A stretch of 29,943 bases of DNA, taken from contig DASZCV010000174.1 of the NCBI GenBank assembly GCA_035942755.1, positions 1 through 29,943 on the forward strand, given 5' to 3'. The notes under the pieces were generated by a model. That model did no database searches, had not been told where the DNA came from, and saw only the letters and a list, made by a program, of their open reading frames with translations. Origin of the DNA: Thermoleophilaceae bacterium. GTDB taxonomy: Bacteria; Actinomycetota; Thermoleophilia; Solirubrobacterales; Thermoleophilaceae. Each line of letters begins with the position of its first letter. The first letter of the stretch is position 1. A program made the position numbers and the translations under genes. Below, piece after piece: positions 21,795 through 29,943 of this stretch.

Positions 21795-21820
21795 GCCGCC
21801 TCCGCACAGGCGGCACTCAG
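21791..21820. terminator. GC-rich hairpin between the convergent LCP and FmdB genes
   Basis: ctgaGCCGCCT-ccgcac-AGGCGGCactcag; no U-tract. Confidence 0.5.
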
Positions 21821-21851
21821 CGGGGGCCCTCGGGGCCGTGGGCCGGTCGGC

Positions 21852-22232
21852 CTAGTTCGACTCCGAGGCGGCCTTGGCCGCGGCCTTCTCGGCGCCCGAC
21901 GAGTCCGACGAGCTCGAGGAGGAGCCGTGGTTGCTCGAGGAGGAGTCGCCCTTGCTCGAGGAAGAGGAGTCAGAGGAGCTCTGAGACGGGTCGGCGCCGT
22001 CCTTGGACTTGCCCTCCTCGCGGCCCGTTGCCTTGCCGTCGTCGGACCCCTTTGCCTGCTTCCCGTAGTCGGTGTTGTAGAAGCCCGAGCCCTTGAAGTG
22101 CACCGCCACGGGGTGGAACACCCGCTGCACCGGCGCCTCGCAGGTGGTGCAGCTGGCGAGCGGATCGTCGCTCATGCGGTGCATCACCTCGAGGGTGTGA
22201 CCGTTCTTGCAGCGATACTCGTAGATCGGCAT
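21852..22232 (-). CDS. FmdB-family zinc-ribbon protein with a Ser-rich tail
   Basis: MPIYEYRCKNGH...CTTC...VHFKGSGFYNTDY. TATACT lies 9 nt before ATG 22232. Confidence 0.93.
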   Translation of the reverse strand: MPIYEYRCKNGHTLEVMHRMSDDPLASCTTCEAPVQRVFHPVAVHFKGSGFYNTDYGKQAKGSDDGKATGREEGKSKDGADPSQSSSDSSSSSKGDSSSSNHGSSSSSSDSSGAEKAAAKAASESN

Positions 22233-22296
22233 GGCACTTCGAGTATACGAGTGCCAACGGGCGCTCTCGCATTGCCCGGGGCAGCCAGGCCACCGT

Positions 22297-22465
22297 CTAG
22301 ATGGTTGATTCCGAATTCGCGTGCCGGCGGGGGCCTGCCAGACCAAGCTGGGCGCCGCACGCGGCCGAAGCAGGTACCGGTAGTACCTGCGAGGACGCGG
22401 GTGGCGATCCAGCGCAGGTATGGCGGATCATCCGTGGGTGCGGGAATAAGGAATCAACCATCTAG
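22297..22465. mobile_element. 169-bp rod-like imperfect palindrome with 16-bp perfect terminal inverted repeats (MITE/ERIC-like candidate)
   Basis: CTAGATGGTTGATTCC (22297-22312) and GGAATCAACCATCTAG (22450-22465); central hairpin GCAGGTAC-cggta-GTACCTGC at the midpoint; near-continuous pairing in between. The repeat itself is certain, the mobile-element interpretation is inferred. Confidence 0.55.
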
Positions 22466-22477
22466 CATGGCGCGGTC

Positions 22478-24643
22478 ATGGACGGCCAGGTAGCAGTCGG
22501 CGAGCACATCCTGAGGATCGGCTCCGAGCACGGAGCGGTCGTGACCTACGCGGCATGGGACTCGCGGCCGCTCGTGCGGCCGAGGGCGGCTCCCGCACGC
22601 GCGCTTGCGGGAGACCTTCCCTCCCTGCTCGGCCGCGAGCGCGAGCTGCACAGCGCGCAAGGAGCGCTCGCGCCGAACGCGCCGGTCGAGATCCTGGGGG
22701 AGCCGGGGATCGGCAAGACCGCCCTGCTTCGCCACCTCGCGCAGCGCCACGGGCGCCCCGGGCACGTGGTGTTCCTTCACGTTGACGGCCACCCCGGCGA
22801 GGACGTGCTGCAGATCCTCTTCGAGAGCTTCTACGAGTACGACGGCGCAAAGGTGGCCACCGTCGCCGAGCTGGCGCAATATCTGAGGGACCGCCACGGG
22901 CTCGTGGTGCTGGACGACGCGGATCTGCCGCGCCAGGAGCTCGAGCGTGTGATGACGCTGGCGCCGGGATGTGCCTTCGCCATCGCCGCGGCCGAGCGGC
23001 GGCTATGGGCGCGGCCGATCCCCCTCAACGGCCTGGACGAGGACTCCTGTCTCGCGCTTGCGCGGCGCGAGCTGGGGCGCGAGTTGAGCGACCGTGAGCG
23101 CGCCTCGCTCACCCGCCTTGCACGGACACTCGACGGGCATCCGCTGCGGATCGTGCAGGCAGCGCACCTCATGATCCGACGGTCACGGCCACCAACGGAC
23201 CGGCCCGCCCCCTCCGGGTCACCGAAAGAGCAGTTCGACGAGCTGGTGACCCGCACCATCGAAGGCCACGAGGAACGGGTGCTCGGCCCGTTGGCGGCCT
23301 TCCAACGGGTGGCGCTCGATGCGGGGCGCCTGGCCGAGATCACGGGCGTGCCCGACACCGGGCGCGCGCTCTCCTCGCTCGAGGAGCGCGGGCTCGTCGA
23401 GGCACACGGCCGCAGCTACTCGCTGGTGGGTGCGACGGGCACAGCGGTGGCGCGTCACACGGACGCTGCCGCATGGCGGGAGCGCACGCTCGCGCACTAC
23501 TCACGAAGCGAGCGGGAGCTGGGCGCCGAGGAGGCACCGGCGGTCCTCTCGCTGCTGGCTGCTGCGGCAGAGGCGGAGGATCACGGCACGGTCATCCGGT
23601 TGGCGCGCCGAGCGGATGCGCCGCTCGCGCTCGGCAGCCGCTGGGGCGCGTGGCGGCAGGCACTCGAAAGGGCGTTGTCGGCGGCGCGCGCGATCGGCGA
23701 GCAGCCCACCGAGGCATGGGCCCTGCACCAGCTCGGGTCCCGCGCCGGGTGCCTGGGTGATCTCGAAGGTGGGACCGCCTTCCTGAACGACTCGGTGCGG
23801 CTGCGCGAGAGCCTGGGCGACGGGGAGGCCCTGAACCTCACCCGGGAGAATCTGGAGACGCTCAGACGCGGCGCCCCTCCCCCATCACTGCCCCCGGCCC
23901 CACCGGCTCGTCCTTCGGCACCGCCTCCCCCTGATCCGCCGCCGCCGCAAGCGGCGCCTACACCGGCGTCTGCAACTTGGTCGCCGCCGCCGGAAGCGGC
24001 CCCCACACCGGCGTCCGCCACTCCGCCGCCGCCGGCCGCACCGTCCCCGGGTCCGCCGCCCTCGCCCCCACGGCGCCCCCAAGGGCAAAGGGGCCGTGAT
24101 CTGCCACCGCTGAGGCCGGTAGTAGCCGCCCTCGCGACGCTCCTGGTCGTGGTGGCGATCGTGCTGGCGCTCTCCGGCGGCGATGACGACGGTGGATCTC
24201 CGGGAGACGGCGATAAGGCCGGCGACACGGATTCGCAGGGCAGGGAGAGGTCAGCCCGGGGCGGGCGCAACAGGAGGCGGCCTCGCAAGCGACCACAGGC
24301 GCTACCGGCGGCGATCGAGCCCAGGTCGCTCGGGTTCACAGCCAGGGTGGCCGAGCGGTCAAGGCCGCAGGTGGTGCAAGCCGAGAACCGGGGCGGCGCG
24401 CGGATCACCCTCGGCGACGTACGTCTGGCGGGCGCCAACAGGAGGGACTTCGCCATCACCGACGGCTGCAGCGGCGCGTCGCTCTCCCGCGGGGCGAGCT
24501 GCAAGGTCGTGGTGAGCTTCGTGCCGGCGAGGCGCAGGGGCGCCGAGGGGGCGGCCACCCTGAGCGCCGCCATCGTCTTCACCGACGACGGCAGGCGTGG
24601 CAGGCAGACCGTGGCGCTGAGGGCACGCAGGTTGCCTGGCTGA
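22478..24643 (+). CDS. STAND/NB-ARC-like P-loop NTPase with TPR-like helices, Pro-rich linker, one TM helix and a C-terminal ASH/choice-of-anchor-D-like Ig domain
   Basis: Walker A GEPGIGKT (22697-22720), Walker B LVVLDD, GxP motif LDGHPL, wHTH-like LEERGLVE, EAWALHQLG repeat, TM VVAALATLLVVVAIVLAL, Ig-like DFAITDGC...SCKVVVSFVP. Confidence 0.8.
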   Translation: MDGQVAVGEHILRIGSEHGAVVTYAAWDSRPLVRPRAAPARALAGDLPSLLGRERELHSAQGALAPNAPVEILGEPGIGKTALLRHLAQRHGRPGHVVFLHVDGHPGEDVLQILFESFYEYDGAKVATVAELAQYLRDRHGLVVLDDADLPRQELERVMTLAPGCAFAIAAAERRLWARPIPLNGLDEDSCLALARRELGRELSDRERASLTRLARTLDGHPLRIVQAAHLMIRRSRPPTDRPAPSGSPKEQFDELVTRTIEGHEERVLGPLAAFQRVALDAGRLAEITGVPDTGRALSSLEERGLVEAHGRSYSLVGATGTAVARHTDAAAWRERTLAHYSRSERELGAEEAPAVLSLLAAAAEAEDHGTVIRLARRADAPLALGSRWGAWRQALERALSAARAIGEQPTEAWALHQLGSRAGCLGDLEGGTAFLNDSVRLRESLGDGEALNLTRENLETLRRGAPPPSLPPAPPARPSAPPPPDPPPPQAAPTPASATWSPPPEAAPTPASATPPPPAAPSPGPPPSPPRRPQGQRGRDLPPLRPVVAALATLLVVVAIVLALSGGDDDGGSPGDGDKAGDTDSQGRERSARGGRNRRRPRKRPQALPAAIEPRSLGFTARVAERSRPQVVQAENRGGARITLGDVRLAGANRRDFAITDGCSGASLSRGASCKVVVSFVPARRRGAEGAATLSAAIVFTDDGRRGRQTVALRARRLPG

Positions 24644-24736
24644 CGGTGGCCCGCCGCCCGCGAACCGTGCCCACCCCTTCTGGACGGATGTTCGAGCTGT
24701 TCCTTTCCCCGCGGCGTGCCGATACTCGTTGCACGC

Positions 24737-26023
24737 ATGTCCGATCTGCCACGCCGCCACTCTTTTGCCGAGGACGTCGTTCTCGACGCCAGGACCGGGC
24801 CCAGGCGGCGCGACAGCGATTGGGGCGGCCATCCGCGCACCCAGGAGGAGGACCTGGCCTGGGCGGCGAAACGGGCGGCCATAAGCATGGCAACAGCGGC
24901 GCTCCACGCGCGCGACGGTGACACCGGCGATCACTCGGACGACGTGGTGCACCTCTGTGACGCCATCGCCGACGAGCTCGGCATCCACGGGCACGACCGC
25001 GCCGAGCTGCTGGCCGCGGCGCAGCTTCACGACGTTGGAAAGGTCGCGATTCCCCGCGAGGTGCTCGAGAAGCCCGGCCCGCTCGATGACCGCGAATGGG
25101 CGCAGATCCGAGAGCACACGATCACCGGACAGCAGATCGTGCAGTCGGTGCCGGAGCTTGACGAGGTCGCCCGGGTGGTGCGCCACAGCCACGAGCGGTG
25201 GGACGGGGGCGGCTACCCCGACGGGCTGGCGGGCGAGAGCATTCCCCTGGCGAGCCGCATCGTCTTCTGCGCCGATGCCTTTCATGCCATTCGATCGGAC
25301 CGTTCGTACCGCCGGGGGCGCGCCGCGGAGGCCGCACTGGAGGAAGTGACGCGCAGCGCCGGCACCCAGTTCGACCCCGATGTGGCAGAGGCACTCGTGA
25401 AGTGCGCCGGGCGGATGCGCCAGGGCGCCCGAAGCCCCGCCACCGGCCGCGGAAGCACGCTGCGCTCCCGCCGGCTGCTGTCGCTTCTTCTGACGCTCGC
25501 CATCGGCGGCAGCGCCCTCGCGGCCGGTGGGTCCCAAGTCCTCCGCGAGCAGGGGGACCCAGGGACCAAGAAGACAGCGCAGCCGTCCTCCCCAGCCCCC
25601 GCCGAGCACGGTGCCACGAGGACGGCGGGGTCAGCCGCCATCGGCAGGCGGCCGGCGCCCCGCAAGGCGGCAGAGAGGCCCCGAGCGGCGAGTGACACCC
25701 GCACGCCAGGGGCGCCCGCGCGGTCGTCGAAGTCGCCGGCCTCCGGGCGCCAGGGAGCGAGCGTCCCGCAGGCTGCCGCCCCCGGAGGTGTGCCGCTGGC
25801 CGCCACGCGGCGTGGCGCCCGACGCCCCGCAAGCCCCGGGCGCTCGGAGGAGGCCCCGCGCCGGCCGGCTCAGCCGGGCAGACCCGTCGGCGGCGCACCT
25901 GGCCGTTCCGAGGAGGCGCCGGGCAGGCCGAGTCAGCCGGTCAAGCTGCCGGCAGCTTCCCAGCCCGGGCTCGGGAAGAAGGCCCCGGCGGCGCTGCCTC
26001 GCGGCGTGGCGAAGCCCCGCTGA
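24737..26023 (+). CDS. HD-GYP domain phosphohydrolase with a TM helix and a Pro/Ala-rich tail
   Basis: HSDDV, LHDVGK, HTITG, HSHERWDGGGYP, ADAFHA, YRRG and QFDP motifs; TM LLSLLLTLAIGGSALAAG. Start is ATG 24737 or GTG 24716. Confidence 0.9.
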   Translation: MSDLPRRHSFAEDVVLDARTGPRRRDSDWGGHPRTQEEDLAWAAKRAAISMATAALHARDGDTGDHSDDVVHLCDAIADELGIHGHDRAELLAAAQLHDVGKVAIPREVLEKPGPLDDREWAQIREHTITGQQIVQSVPELDEVARVVRHSHERWDGGGYPDGLAGESIPLASRIVFCADAFHAIRSDRSYRRGRAAEAALEEVTRSAGTQFDPDVAEALVKCAGRMRQGARSPATGRGSTLRSRRLLSLLLTLAIGGSALAAGGSQVLREQGDPGTKKTAQPSSPAPAEHGATRTAGSAAIGRRPAPRKAAERPRAASDTRTPGAPARSSKSPASGRQGASVPQAAAPGGVPLAATRRGARRPASPGRSEEAPRRPAQPGRPVGGAPGRSEEAPGRPSQPVKLPAASQPGLGKKAPAALPRGVAKPR

Positions 26024-26065
26024 ACCCACGCCGGTCCTCCGCTTCGCCGAGGCCCGGGTGCGGGC

Positions 26066-26269
26066 TCAGTCGGCCGGCGGACCGTCTTGTTCCGCGGTGC
26101 GCGGTTCCGCGGTGCGCGCGGTGACGGCCTTGATCACGCCGTCACCGAAGGCAAGTCGCAGAACCGGATCCTCGACCATGCCACGAGCCCACTGGACGGC
26201 CTTCTCGGGATCGGAGAGCTCCTCGATCTCGACCACGCGAAACAGCGCGTAGAACACGGCCTCTGCCAC
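26066..26269 (-). CDS. Small hypothetical protein (67 aa)
   Basis: GAGGGAG RBS before the GTG and high GC3 codon pattern. Contains a 15-bp tandem duplication (26090-26118) encoding TAEPR-TAEQ. Confidence 0.6.
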   Translation of the reverse strand: MAEAVFYALFRVVEIEELSDPEKAVQWARGMVEDPVLRLAFGDGVIKAVTARTAEPRTAEQDGPPAD

Positions 26270-26334
26270 GAGCTCTCGCTCCCTCTCGATTCCAGGGGTG
26301 CTGGCGATGGGTCGAGCTTACCTGGGCGCGGGCG

Positions 26335-27222
26335 CTAGTCCACCTTCGCCGGGCGGTTCAGCGTGCCCGACTCCGGCACGCCCTCCCCCAGCTCCTTCTG
26401 CCGTTCGATCTCGGCGTTGAGCTCGGCGCCCAGGAGGAGGGCCACGTTGGTGAGCCACATCCACGCCAGGAGCACGATCGCGCTCGCGAAGGTGCCATAG
26501 AACGCACCGACGTCAGCCACCCTCGATATGTAGACCGACAATCCGAGCGATGCCAGCAGCCACAGCGCCACGCCCACCACCGCCCCGGGGGTGACCCACC
26601 GAAACGACCGCTGCTTCACGTCCGGCGTCACGAAGTAGACGAACGCGAAGACCAGCATCGCCACCAGGATCGCCGCCGGCCAGCGAACGATGCCCCAGAT
26701 CTGCGCCGCGGTCGAGTCAAGCCCGATGAAGCCGAACAGGTCGTCGGCGAACTGGCCGCCGACGAACACGAGCACGACACTCGGCAGGACGAGCGCGAAC
26801 AGCACGACCGACGACAGGACGTCCACCGTCTTGCGGCGCACGAAGCTGCGACCACCGTCCACCTCGAAGACCACGTTCAGGGCACGGCGGGCCGCCTCGA
26901 GCACACCGGTGCTGCCGTAGAGCGCGGCAGGCACGCCGAGAGCCAACGCGCCCGTGGCGCCACCCTTGCTCTGCAGCGCTTTGCGAAGCGACGTGTCGAG
27001 CGGCTCGACCACGGTGCTGGGGGCCACCTTCCGCAGATACGCGATGATGGCGTCGTAGGTGGCGGGGTACTCGCCCAGCAGCACGAGCAGCGAGAGCGCC
27101 ACCAGAAGGGTCGGGAAGAGCGCCATCAGCGCGTAATAGGTGAGCGCCGCCGCGTGATGGGTCATCTGGTCGTCGTAGAAGGAGACCAGCGTTCGCTTGA
27201 TCACCGCTGCGCTGTTACGCAT
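26335..27222 (-). CDS. YihY/virulence factor BrkB-family membrane protein
   Basis: AAALTYYALMALFP, ALNVVFEV, RWP, FRWVTPGA and YGTFASAIVLLAWMWL..GAELNAE motifs. TAGGCT lies 8 nt before the ATG. Confidence 0.95.
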   Translation of the reverse strand: MRNSAAVIKRTLVSFYDDQMTHHAAALTYYALMALFPTLLVALSLLVLLGEYPATYDAIIAYLRKVAPSTVVEPLDTSLRKALQSKGGATGALALGVPAALYGSTGVLEAARRALNVVFEVDGGRSFVRRKTVDVLSSVVLFALVLPSVVLVFVGGQFADDLFGFIGLDSTAAQIWGIVRWPAAILVAMLVFAFVYFVTPDVKQRSFRWVTPGAVVGVALWLLASLGLSVYISRVADVGAFYGTFASAIVLLAWMWLTNVALLLGAELNAEIERQKELGEGVPESGTLNRPAKVD

Positions 27223-27310
27223 CAGGGAGAAGCCTATGGTGGCCGGCGTCGATGGCCAATTCGTCCAGCCGGGAGCCGGTTACGAGCGAGGGCCGACAAT
27301 TCGGTGGTAT

Positions 27311-27538
27311 ATGAGTGTGGTGGCGCTGATAGCAGAGCTCCGCTGCAGATCCTGCGGGCATGAGAGCAGCGCCCTCGTGGCCCGGCTCTTCCCTCTGCAG
27401 CGCCACCCGTGCTCGGAATGCGGAGGGCTCAAGGCAGTCGTCGCACTGATCAGGGACCGCCGCGCGCGCGACATTCCGGTGGCGGATGACCGCCGCGCCG
27501 GGGGTGGCCCGGCCCGACGGCTCGACGAGAGCGCCTGA
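27311..27538 (+). CDS. Zinc-ribbon microprotein (75 aa) with a DRR...DDRR tail
   Basis: From ATG 27311: LRCRSCGH...PCSECGG...IRDRRARDIPVADDRRAGG. Confidence 0.65.
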   Translation: MSVVALIAELRCRSCGHESSALVARLFPLQRHPCSECGGLKAVVALIRDRRARDIPVADDRRAGGGPARRLDESA

Positions 27539-27564
27539 CCGCGCCTCCGGCCGAGTCGCCTGTC

Positions 27565-27735
27565 TCAGCCGACGCGGATGTCGATCCCGAACAGGAGCAG
27601 CGGCCAGAGCATGACGGCGAGGATCGCCGACAAGAGGCGCCCGATCGTGTTCAGGTGATCGAAGTAGTTGTCCGCCGCTGCAACGAGCACGCCGATCACT
27701 ACATAGATGACACCGCCGATACCCGATCCACGCAT
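27565..27735 (-). CDS. 56-aa two-TM membrane microprotein not in the ORF track
   Basis: Manual translation: MRGSGIGGVIYVVIGVLVAAADNYFDHLNTIGRLLSAILAVMLWPLLLFGIDIRVG*. High GC3; GGGTAC lies 9 nt upstream. Confidence 0.8.
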   Translation of the reverse strand: MRGSGIGGVIYVVIGVLVAAADNYFDHLNTIGRLLSAILAVMLWPLLLFGIDIRVG

Positions 27736-27823
27736 GCCATCCAGGTACCCACACGTCCGATGTCCGTATCACCAGTGGCCAGACGTTCGACCGGCCGGCC
27801 CCGGCACGGTGCAGGCCCTTGGA

Positions 27824-27852
27824 TTGACCGGTCGCACAACCGCTGGCACACT
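27824..27852 (+). promoter_or_regulatory. Sigma70-type promoter TTGACC-N17-(TG)nCACACT
   Basis: TTGACC at 27824-27829, 17-nt spacer, CACACT at 27847-27852, TG at 27844-27845. Confidence 0.55.
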
Positions 27853-27909
27853 GGAGCCATCCTCGGCTGTGGAGAGAGGCTCGCCTGCACCGCGGTCTGC
27901 ATCCTGGGG

Positions 27910-28500
27910 ATGGCTGTCGCCGCCGGCGTCCCGGCGGCTGCGACCGCCAAGCCGCGGCAGTCCTGCATCCGCGCCCACTCAAAGACGGTTGCCCAGAATG
28001 GATTCGCGCGCGTGTACCGGGTGCGGACCGGCGAGGGCACCAACCTGTATGCATGTCGTCGCTCCACGGGCAGGCGCGTTCTACTTCACGCGGCATTCGA
28101 CGACGACTACGTCTCGAGCAGCTCCTATCGCAACGTACGGCTGGCGGGTGTGTTCGTGGCGTGGGCCCACACCTCGACCGACGTGAGCTGCAAGGCGCAG
28201 TGTCCGCCGGGCTACAACCCCACGACCTCCGCCATCAGCGTCTACGACCTCCGCCGCCACCGGGTCAGAACCATGCCCGGAGCTGTGCCGCTGGGACGCG
28301 CGCTCATGCTGAGTCGGCTCGGGGGCGTGGCCTGGGCGAGCGCCGGCAGCGCCGGCTCCGTTGAGATCCACGGCTCCGTCCGGCCCGGCGATGATCGTGT
28401 GATCGACAGCGGCAACATCGATCCCAGCTCCCTGACCATCGAGGTCACGATCATCGCCTGGCGGCGTGACGGGGTCGAGCGGTTCCCGCGCCTTCGCTGA
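27910..28500 (+). CDS. Secreted Cys-containing hypothetical protein (start uncertain)
   Basis: AVAAGVPAAATA-KPRQSC..., NLYACRRSTGRR, VRLAGVFVAW, CKAQCP. The track start at 27655 overlaps the 27565-27735 gene and the promoter. Confidence 0.7.
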   Translation: MAVAAGVPAAATAKPRQSCIRAHSKTVAQNGFARVYRVRTGEGTNLYACRRSTGRRVLLHAAFDDDYVSSSSYRNVRLAGVFVAWAHTSTDVSCKAQCPPGYNPTTSAISVYDLRRHRVRTMPGAVPLGRALMLSRLGGVAWASAGSAGSVEIHGSVRPGDDRVIDSGNIDPSSLTIEVTIIAWRRDGVERFPRLR

Positions 28501-28504
28501 GGCT

Positions 28505-28528
28505 CGGGGAGCCCAGGTGGGCTCCCCG
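28505..28528. terminator. Hairpin terminator between convergent genes
   Basis: CGGGGAGCCC-aggt-GGGCTCCCCG, a perfect 10-bp stem. Confidence 0.7.
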
Positions 28529-28535
28529 GGTTCGG

Positions 28536-29093
28536 CTACGCCGGCGCCCCGGCGTGGGCCGCAACCTCGATCGTAGCCCGCATGAACTCCGGCAGGTCAT
28601 CGGGCTTGCGCGAGGACACGAGGTTGCCGTCGACGACCACCTCCGAGTCCTCCCACTCCGCGCCGGCGTTCCGGACGTCGTCCTCGATCGACGGGTTTCC
28701 GGTCATGCGCCGACCCTCCACGATCCCGGCTGAGATCGGCACCCAGCCCCCGTGGCAGATGAACGCGATGGGCTTGCCCTGCCCGTGAACGTCCCGCACG
28801 AGCTGGAGTAGGCCGTCGTCCAGCCGCAGCTTGTCCGGCCCGTAGCCGCCTGCGATCACCAGCACGTCGAGGTCGTCCACCGACAGGTCGCCCGCAGCCG
28901 CCTCGGTCTCGATCTCATCGCCGCGCTTGCCCGGAAGCGTCTTGCCGGCCTCGGCGCCCACCACCTGCACCTGTGCACCCGCCTCTCGCAGTCGGTAGAG
29001 CGGATACAGCGCTTCGATCTCCTCGTAGAGCGGGCCGACCGCTACCGCGGCGCGCTTGCCCTCGAGCGGCTGATCATGTTCGTGATGAGTCAT
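28536..29093 (-). CDS. PfpI/DJ-1 family (type 1 glutamine amidotransferase-like) protein
   Basis: YEEIEALYPLYRL, IAGGYGPDKLR, ICHG nucleophile and LVSSRKPDDLP motifs. GAGGAG RBS before ATG 29093. Confidence 0.93.
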   Translation of the reverse strand: MTHHEHDQPLEGKRAAVAVGPLYEEIEALYPLYRLREAGAQVQVVGAEAGKTLPGKRGDEIETEAAAGDLSVDDLDVLVIAGGYGPDKLRLDDGLLQLVRDVHGQGKPIAFICHGGWVPISAGIVEGRRMTGNPSIEDDVRNAGAEWEDSEVVVDGNLVSSRKPDDLPEFMRATIEVAAHAGAPA

Positions 29094-29127
29094 CTGTGCT
29101 CCTCTCGGATCGGTTTGCATCGTGATG

Positions 29128-29154
29128 ATTCCCAGTCCGGGCCACGGCGGAACC
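29128..29154 (-). promoter_or_regulatory. SigB/SigF-type stress promoter candidate for the PfpI gene
   Basis: Minus strand GGTTC-N16-GGGAAT; each half has one mismatch to GGWWT-N16/17-GGGTAY. Confidence 0.4.
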
Positions 29155-29192
29155 TGCCGGAGCTTGTCGAGCCGGGTGCGGTGACGAGCGCC

Positions 29193-29943
29193 ATGCCTCC
29201 GAGGAGGTGGCGCGGCGGTCGTAACCCCGGCCTGGCGCGAGCCGCCAGTTTCAAACCGACCGGCCGGGAAAGCAATTGCGCCATCCCTCGCCATGCACTC
29301 GCCATAGGAGTCGCAGCTGGCGCCCTGCTCGCCGGAGCATCCGCTTCCCTGTCCTGTGGCGGAGAGTCACCCGGAACCTCACCGAGAGCACAGGGCTCAG
29401 CCGTGGCGCCGGCCCGGCAGGTCGCACTGGCGTTCGAGGAGCCGAACGGGCGAAGGTCCCACTACCTCCTGTATCTGCCGCGCGAATATGCGGCCGGCGG
29501 GCGCCGGTGGCCGCTGTTGCTCTACCTCCACGGGGCGGACGTTCTCGGCAGCGGTCGACGGGCCCTGCAGAGGGTGCGCCGCCAGGGCATTCCGAAGGCC
29601 GTCCTCCGCCACCCGGACTTTCCGTTCATCGCCGTATCGCCCCAGACCGCCTCGCGGTGGGCGCCGGCCCGGCTCAGATCGCTGCTCGATCACATCCAGC
29701 GGCGCCACCGGGTGGACCGCAGGCGCATCTATGCCACCGGATTCTCCCTCGGCGGCTACGGCGTCTGGGAGCTCGCGAGCGCCTACCCCCGGCGCTTTGC
29801 GGCCGTCGCGCCGATAGCCGGTGGCCCCGGCGACCGACGACCAGGGTGTCCACTGAAGACGGTCCCTTTGTGGGCCTTCCACGGAACAGCCGAAGACGTG
29901 GTTCCCGCCAGCTAATCGAATGCCATGGTGCGCGGGGTGAGGC
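29193..29943 (+). pseudogene. Alpha/beta hydrolase (predicted peptidase/carboxylesterase) interrupted by an in-frame TAA at 29913-29915
   Basis: YLLYLP, PLLLYLHG, SPQ, RIYATGFSLGG (GxSxG) and WAFHGTAEDVVP motifs. The frame continues after the TAA as SNAMVRGVR to the window edge. Start uncertain. Confidence 0.7.

Follow-up and report, generated by a model that had tools for sequence, protein, structure and literature searches.

ERIC/IRU and Correia elements are imperfect intergenic palindromes of 100–170 nt with conserved stem pairing, and they have been argued to act as RNA. RNA effects and orientation-dependent effects of these elements have been shown experimentally. IS elements of the IS982 family, as described in ISfinder, are ~1 kb long and have a single ORF, terminal inverted repeats (IRs) of 18–35 bp, and direct repeats of 3–9 bp. 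Tenzen et al. are said to have reported in 1990 that IS630 targets CTAG and duplicates TA. MITEs derived from IS982 have already been described in Cardinium, where, according to the accessible part of that study, they are ~240 bp long and have ISCca4 as the parental element (PMC9769881). For IS5, the duplication flanking the element is CTAG (PMC10379815).

Here we analyzed a window of 29,943 nt, which is contig DASZCV010000174.1 (C174) of the Thermoleophilaceae MAG G000 (GCA_035942755.1; 1.48 Mb, 65% complete). The window contains a 169-bp palindrome between a Zn-ribbon gene and an NTPase gene (Table 1). As far as sequence comparison can tell, this palindrome is very probably a non-coding MITE whose ends match those of a 994-bp IS982-family IS and which inserts at CTAG. 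An unnamed MITE family had been proposed in an earlier reading made from the letters of the window (hereafter the sequence-only reading), and it is now accompanied by multiple copies, empty CTAG sites, and an IS with matching ends. The element is shorter than 500 bp and non-coding, its TIRs are conserved, its flanks and empty sites show CTAG, and its copies are dispersed and polymorphic.

Table 1. Positions of the element, its parts and the adjoining genes in the window.
Feature	Position	Strand	Basis
MITE, full-length copy, 169 bp	22297..22465	+ (better-folding strand)	sequence, fold, CM R1
Left TIR, 16 nt perfect; ~20 nt common to IS982-family IS	22297..22312	+	
Right TIR, 16 nt perfect	22450..22465	-	same 16-mer inverted; ~20 nt common to IS982-family IS
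Left CTAG, putative target-site copy (TA or CTAG duplicated)	22297..22300		44/71 elements CTAG...CTAG; G018 empty site ccaccgtCTAGggttg
Right CTAG, putative target-site copy; its TAG opens TAGCAT	22462..22465		G018 empty site GGAGGCCTAGcatcgg, same ATG downstream
Apex hairpin, 8-bp stem, 5-nt loop (22378-22382)	22370..22390	+	MFE fold; endpoint of two independent left-arm deletions
TAGCAT, putative -10 of the sequence-only reading	22463..22468	+	already in empty site
STAND/AAA_16-like NTPase gene, start abuts right end of element	22478..24643	+	ORF, Pfam
Zn_ribbon_8 gene	21852..22232	-	Pfam; divergent neighbour in relatives is glyS, not NTPase

The length of 169 nt, the perfect 16-nt inverted TIRs, and the CTAG at each end were all borne out by the sequence. 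Folded as RNA, the + strand formed one unbranched rod of 68 pairs with a folding energy of -115.9 kcal/mol, compared to -65.3 ± 4.1 kcal/mol for its dinucleotide shuffles (z -12.3), while the - strand folded at -88.9 kcal/mol (z -7.8). The MFE fold confirmed the 31 paired positions in the outer 35 nt that had been read by eye, including four G.U pairs, as well as the 8-bp apex stem; in the whole + strand rod, 8 of the 68 pairs were G.U. The covariance model (CM) R1 scored the window copy at 184.5 bits on the + strand and at 75.6 bits on the - strand. Since the element belongs to a repeated family, its palindrome is far beyond chance.

A search for further copies, which the sequence-only reading had called for, found two full copies (C174 and C217, 97% identical) and one half copy (C81) in G000, and full copies at 75–89% identity in unrelated flanks in other species of the genus. 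A CM trained on 32 distinct copies was used for the census of the genus and the class. In the genus, 21 of 45 genomes were positive, with 1–8 full copies per genome, and in the class copies were detected in 29 of the 151 sampled genomes and 24 of the 72 genera. The closed genome G025 (3.88 Mb), which belongs to another family of Solirubrobacterales, contained ~55 copies by CM. Related contigs came from Thermoleophilia soil MAGs assigned to Solirubrobacterales, Thermoleophilaceae, and Gaiellales. Across the class the element had a length of 169 ± 3 nt, and its distribution among genomes was patchy; G018, the closest relative of G000 (85–93% nucleotide identity in the flanks), had no copy at the CM threshold used. 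Most genomes had 1–8 copies, which is low for a MITE and counts against the MITE reading.

Elements with the same TIRs were also found in other sizes, from 46 to 329 nt. An opposed-TIR scan of the fetched loci showed spacings mostly of 167–170 nt, together with minis of 36–90 nt and variants of 200–330 nt. Three loci of ~205–211 nt (L088, L105, L155) and two of ~326–329 nt (L099, L178) had the same TIRs with another core or none, and the mini elements L014, L124, L164, and L176 (46–56 nt) contained little beyond the two TIRs. The occurrence of the same TIRs with various cores or no core implies that one IS group accounts for a whole set of MITE families. Tandem back-to-back copies that share a junction were observed at G025:C1:118355-118695 (L245) and G027:C204:25019-25293 (L009), as would be predicted were the CTAG beside one copy itself a target. 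Two half copies, G000:C81:278-371 (L003) and G023:C211 (L008:1492-1592), lacked the left arm and both started at the apex (GTACTGGTAGTACC), which suggests hairpin-associated deletion. The junction of the C81 half copy showed AG microhomology with the retained CTAG.

The sequence-only reading had also asked for a transposase element with matching TIRs, and the 17-mer scan, with opposed TIRs located by a 15-nt probe, revealed six elements of 988–994 bp with the same termini (probe spacing of 986–992 nt plus an outer C and an outer G). ORFs were examined in two of these copies, L097 and L143, and each had one of 289–316 aa, whose products scored 173.3 and 171.4 bits against the IS982-family model NCBIfam NF033520 (cutoff 130) and matched Pfam DDE_Tnp_1. 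This domain is carried by IS982 as well as by IS4/IS5-type transposases; against the IS5 models the IS protein scored 36.7 bits (cutoff 110), and against the IS4 models it was also far below the cutoffs. The length of 988–994 bp, the one ORF, and the ~20-nt IRs fit the IS982 format. The partner is therefore an IS982-family element (173 bits vs 130) and not the IS630/Tc1-type one that had been guessed, nor an IS5. No IS630-type (DDE_3) element with matching ends was found among the ~1-kb elements, all of which share size and termini and two of which were examined and proved to be IS982-type. At L143:3801-4949, the IS982-family element abuts an ORF of 382 aa that resembles an IS630-type transposase (HTH and DDE recognized by eye), and the locus may be an IS-in-IS nest.

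In a BLAST comparison, the MITE and the IS had only their terminal 20–23 nt in common, so the 127-nt core of the MITE is not a remnant of an internal deletion. Within the genus, an IS homologue on G045:C130 had a 16-nt terminal repeat identical to that of the window element, and further homologues were found in G051 (two copies), in G006 (broken at contig ends), and in G018 (with divergent ends). An IS982-family transposase was not found in G000 by a genome search and by local tblastn (E <= 10), in a MAG that is 65% complete and given that IS elements often fail to assemble; the IS transposase query also had no match in the MITE-bearing genomes G021, G014, G017, and G009. Judging from the shared ends, the DDE transposase encoded by the 994-bp IS982-family IS would mobilise the MITE in trans. 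The MITE itself has no coding capacity, and its 127-nt core is a near-palindrome that folds as a rod and is unrelated to the IS.

CTAG...CTAG bounded 44 of the 71 distinct TIR-bounded elements, and most of the others were one or two changes off. No direct repeat longer than CTAG adjoined these 71 elements. In two of the ~27 non-canonical cases, the flanks resembled direct repeats of 3 nt (TGA, TCA) on either side of GATGG...CCATC, a number that is not beyond chance. The ~1-kb IS elements were also bounded by CTAG...CTAG; a duplication of 4 bp lies inside the 3–9 bp range of IS982, and one of 2 bp lies outside it. A literature search for IS982 target-site rules yielded nothing useful.

Empty CTAG or TA sites, another item on the list of the sequence-only reading, were found in G018 as a single CTAG. 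In this genome, none of the three G000 loci carried the element, and each join showed CTAG. At the Zn-ribbon locus, the flank continued through a single CTAG into glyS, and at the NTPase locus the MMPL-type transporter gene ended in ...GGCCTAG, followed by CATCGG. These empty sites indicate that CTAG is the target and stands on both sides after insertion. The comparison of C217 with G018 provided the one clean single-locus empty site, which carries extra CTAG-containing 8-mers, a point that counts against the MITE reading. In G018:C1 this site (L180:1481-1505) reads CTAGTCCG CTAGTCCC CTAG, which gives three CTAGs in 20 nt; a footprint is one possible origin, and tandem duplication, local to a hot target, is another. 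In more distant relatives, the intergenic DNA at the element loci was too diverged to read the join. Insertion at CTAG would leave a CTAG on each side, whether the duplication comprises the central TA or the whole tetranucleotide; as CTAG is palindromic, the two cases look alike.

In 52 of 134 copies, the TAG of a flanking CTAG served as the in-frame stop codon of an abutting GC3-supported ORF of at least 100 codons. Since CTAG holds TAG on both strands, ~40% of the copies stand exactly on the stop of a neighbouring gene. The duplication would restore the TAG stop of a gene hit by insertion. Landing on CTAG, and often on TAG stops, can be seen as a low-damage strategy, and CTAG should be rare in a GC-rich genome.

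The two sides of the element in the window appear to come from different loci. The Zn-ribbon gene was the divergent neighbour of glyS in 23 of 23 scorable relatives of the genus, and C174 alone joins it to the NTPase gene, which in G018 follows an MMPL gene. The order on contig C81 of G000 was MMPL gene, CTAG, right half of the element, and 5' end of the NTPase gene; this contig was 97% identical to the window and ended 277 nt into the NTPase gene. The NTPase variant on C81 had a premature stop (GAG>TAG at codon 54, window 22637) and six other SNPs in 277 nt; within this bin, it is either a strain variant or an allele that has become a pseudogene. In Logan contigs of run X1, the likely source metagenome, one contig crossed the left junction (22237-22326), another crossed the right junction (22418-23200), and another linked the MMPL end to the left end of the element. 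The core (22298-22447) formed a separate piece with a depth ~3x that of the flanks, and none of the X1 Logan contigs crossed the whole element. The join in C174 (1-22296 to 22466-29943) probably arose either in assembly, by a path through the repeat, or by genuine recombination of two copies. The right-hand junction, to the NTPase gene, is real; no reliance should be placed on the Zn-ribbon gene as the other side of a "divergent promoter".

With its right end 12 nt from the ATG of the NTPase gene, at a junction that is real in the source metagenome, the element might instead supply or remodel the NTPase promoter, its right end replacing the -35 region upstream of TAGCAT. This hexamer fits the actinobacterial TANNNT pattern of -10 boxes and does lie 9 nt upstream of the ATG, as the sequence-only reading had it, although its TAG was not brought by the TIR: in G018, CTAGCAT is already found at the empty site, ahead of this ATG. 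The element did not create the putative -10, and it could only have replaced the sequence upstream of it. A scan of 22150-22600 for sigma-70-type promoters found none, the 9 nt from the -10 to the ATG are long for a leaderless start, and the family has no preference for sites upstream of genes in sense orientation. We consider a promoter role improbable. The perfect inverted repeats around a short segment beside a gene start had also raised the idea of an invertible promoter segment, flipped by a recombinase acting on the 16-nt repeats. Dozens of dispersed copies, whose surroundings are unrelated and whose polarity is fixed in each case, and an IS with the same ends speak against it; strand-changing joints were absent among the contigs of the source sample (contigs drop rare variants), and no recombinase was found among the neighbouring ORFs scanned against Pfam. 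An inverton can hardly be maintained on these data. The same holds for a small protein encoded by one or both of the 54-codon TIR-to-TIR ORFs, for which the chance seems minimal: both frames are indeed open in the window copy (22301-22465 on the + strand, 22297-22461 on the - strand), but they are not conserved across the family, being retained on the + strand in only 15 and on the - strand in only 14 of the 32 copies, whose lengths vary by 1–2 nt, not by multiples of three. Shuffled cores were open on the + strand in 30% and on both strands in 18% of cases, and TIR-to-TIR open frames were also found on both strands of the 994-bp IS outside the transposase frame, so these open frames are an effect of GC-rich composition.

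The MITE reading leaves a further feature to be accounted for, which is the conservation of the rod. In the 32-copy alignment, compensatory double changes were found in 33 of 61 consensus pairs, compared to 18.9 ± 2.1 in shuffles (0/500), and 95.2% of the cells were paired (column shuffles: 85.1%). At 0.325, the covariation score exceeded that of the shuffles (0.146, with none of 500 reaching it) and that of slid registers (0.05–0.065). G.U was present in most copies at five consensus pairs and one symmetric-loop position, while A.C was the majority at none; the cell counts of the same alignment were 225 for G.U and 18 for A.C. Parsimony on the tree gave 67 changes from Watson–Crick (WC) to G.U vs 21 from WC to A.C (43 vs 16 on terminal branches). 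Pair-breaking transversions numbered 69, compared to the 67 G.U events, and because they are as frequent, any constraint on the rod is not tight. The remaining mismatches were purine-purine on the + strand. The more stable fold was that of the + strand in 138 of 139 copies, with a difference averaging 30 kcal/mol.

The orientation of the copies was compared with genes and with replication. The coding strand of the flanks was called by GC3, and only co-directional contexts were counted. The well-folding strand was antisense in 25 and sense in 7 contexts of G025, antisense in 5 and sense in 0 of G188, antisense in 1 and sense in 0 of G170, and antisense in 15 and sense in 13 of the other genomes pooled, giving totals of 46 and 20. 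In G025, the orientation flipped near 1.07–1.17 Mb and 2.98 Mb, which are the predicted terminus and origin, respectively (dnaA at 3.005 Mb). Of 55 G025 copies (CM matches), 39 had the + strand on the lagging-strand sequence, as had 45 of 64 scored copies over all three complete genomes (scripted tally). Since the leading strand carries 68% of the flanking genes, the gene and replication biases are confounded; in the discordant class, five copies followed genes and three followed replication. The orientation bias may stem from biased insertion, from an effect at the RNA level, or from the loss of copies that have their strong hairpin in the exposed strand.

Besides mobility, the + strand rod could be a functional single-stranded structure, either RNA, such as a regulatory or processed hairpin of the kind proposed for ERIC and Correia elements, or ssDNA required for propagation, whose pairing is kept by selection and not by palindromic descent. 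This reading is compatible with a MITE, and we regard it as a tentative possibility on the doubtful side. The compensatory changes, the covariation above both shuffles and slid registers, the conserved G.U positions, the ~3:1 ratio of WC to G.U over WC to A.C changes, the better fold of the + strand in nearly all copies, and the constant length across the class all point to it. Template-switch correction of DNA quasipalindromes can yield compensatory changes without selection, which weakens the first of these points, but it would not favour G.U over A.C. Mutation bias is unlikely as the cause of the G.U excess, since lagging-strand deamination in G025 would favour A.C and not G.U. The high number of pair-breaking transversions argues against a selected rod. 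So does the tendency of the well-folding strand, where biased, to lie antisense to its neighbours, because read-through transcripts would then bear the weaker strand. An Rfam scan of 21800-23000 at E <= 1 was empty, and scans of 22150-22600 found no internal promoter and no intrinsic terminator. Of the structured-RNA alternative raised by the sequence-only reading, the covariation and the + strand G.U bias are real, while a match to Rfam was not obtained. RNA run X15 covered only the Zn-ribbon gene of the window, and in other runs labelled as RNA, as much as half of the words sampled from the element was present. The more specific proposal that the + strand rod is selected as a MITE-borne RNA, or as an ssDNA fold-back required by an IS982-type DDE transposase, appears unlikely. 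In such a fold-back, the two TIRs would pair and mimic one double-stranded end. If true, a selected rod would account for the conservation of G.U pairs, for changes to G.U outnumbering those to A.C by 3:1, and for the orientation bias relative to genes and replication.

The non-coding MITE with IS982-type ends, which remains our preferred reading, provides a repeat family and a candidate parental IS in a poorly studied and mostly uncultured class of soil Actinomycetota, and this will aid annotation. The family also points to one reason why MAGs are fragmented or misjoined, the window contig being an example. If the strand-specific conservation of the hairpin is functional, the family would be a testable case of a structure-dependent MITE of the DDE type.

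Compared to known systems, the element is ordinary in kind, save for the one-strand bias of hairpin conservation. Like the Cardinium MITE, it is short and non-coding, and its inverted repeats match an IS982-family IS of the same lineage (PMC9769881). From what is accessible of that study, intact parental copies are thought to maintain the Cardinium MITE, which looks like an internal deletion of its parent, whereas here the common part is limited to the terminal ~20 nt, and the core is a palindromic rod with no relation to the IS; CTAG targeting is not reported in that part of the paper (PMC9769881). The host there is a Bacteroidota endosymbiont, and here it is a soil actinomycetotal lineage. 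The partner IS resembles IS5 in its DDE_Tnp_1-type transposase and its tetranucleotide flanking repeat CTAG (PMC10379815), but differs from it in that the transposase scores as IS982 (173 bits) and falls below the IS5 models (36.7 vs 110), with a length of ~1 kb and other ends. The element is similar to IS630/Tc1-type MITEs (RUP, Correia-like) in being small, bounded by TIRs, and hairpin-forming, with TA at both ends, and unlike them in that the autonomous element with matching ends belongs to the IS982 family. REP/BIME sequences combine a palindromic unit of 20–40 nt with a Y1 (RAYT) transposase, whereas the present element has 169 nt and the ends of a DDE-type IS. With ERIC/IRU and Correia elements it shares an imperfect palindrome of similar size and conserved stem pairing; in contrast to the experimentally shown RNA effects of those families, any RNA effect here is putative, and the strong strand tends to lie antisense to the neighbouring genes.
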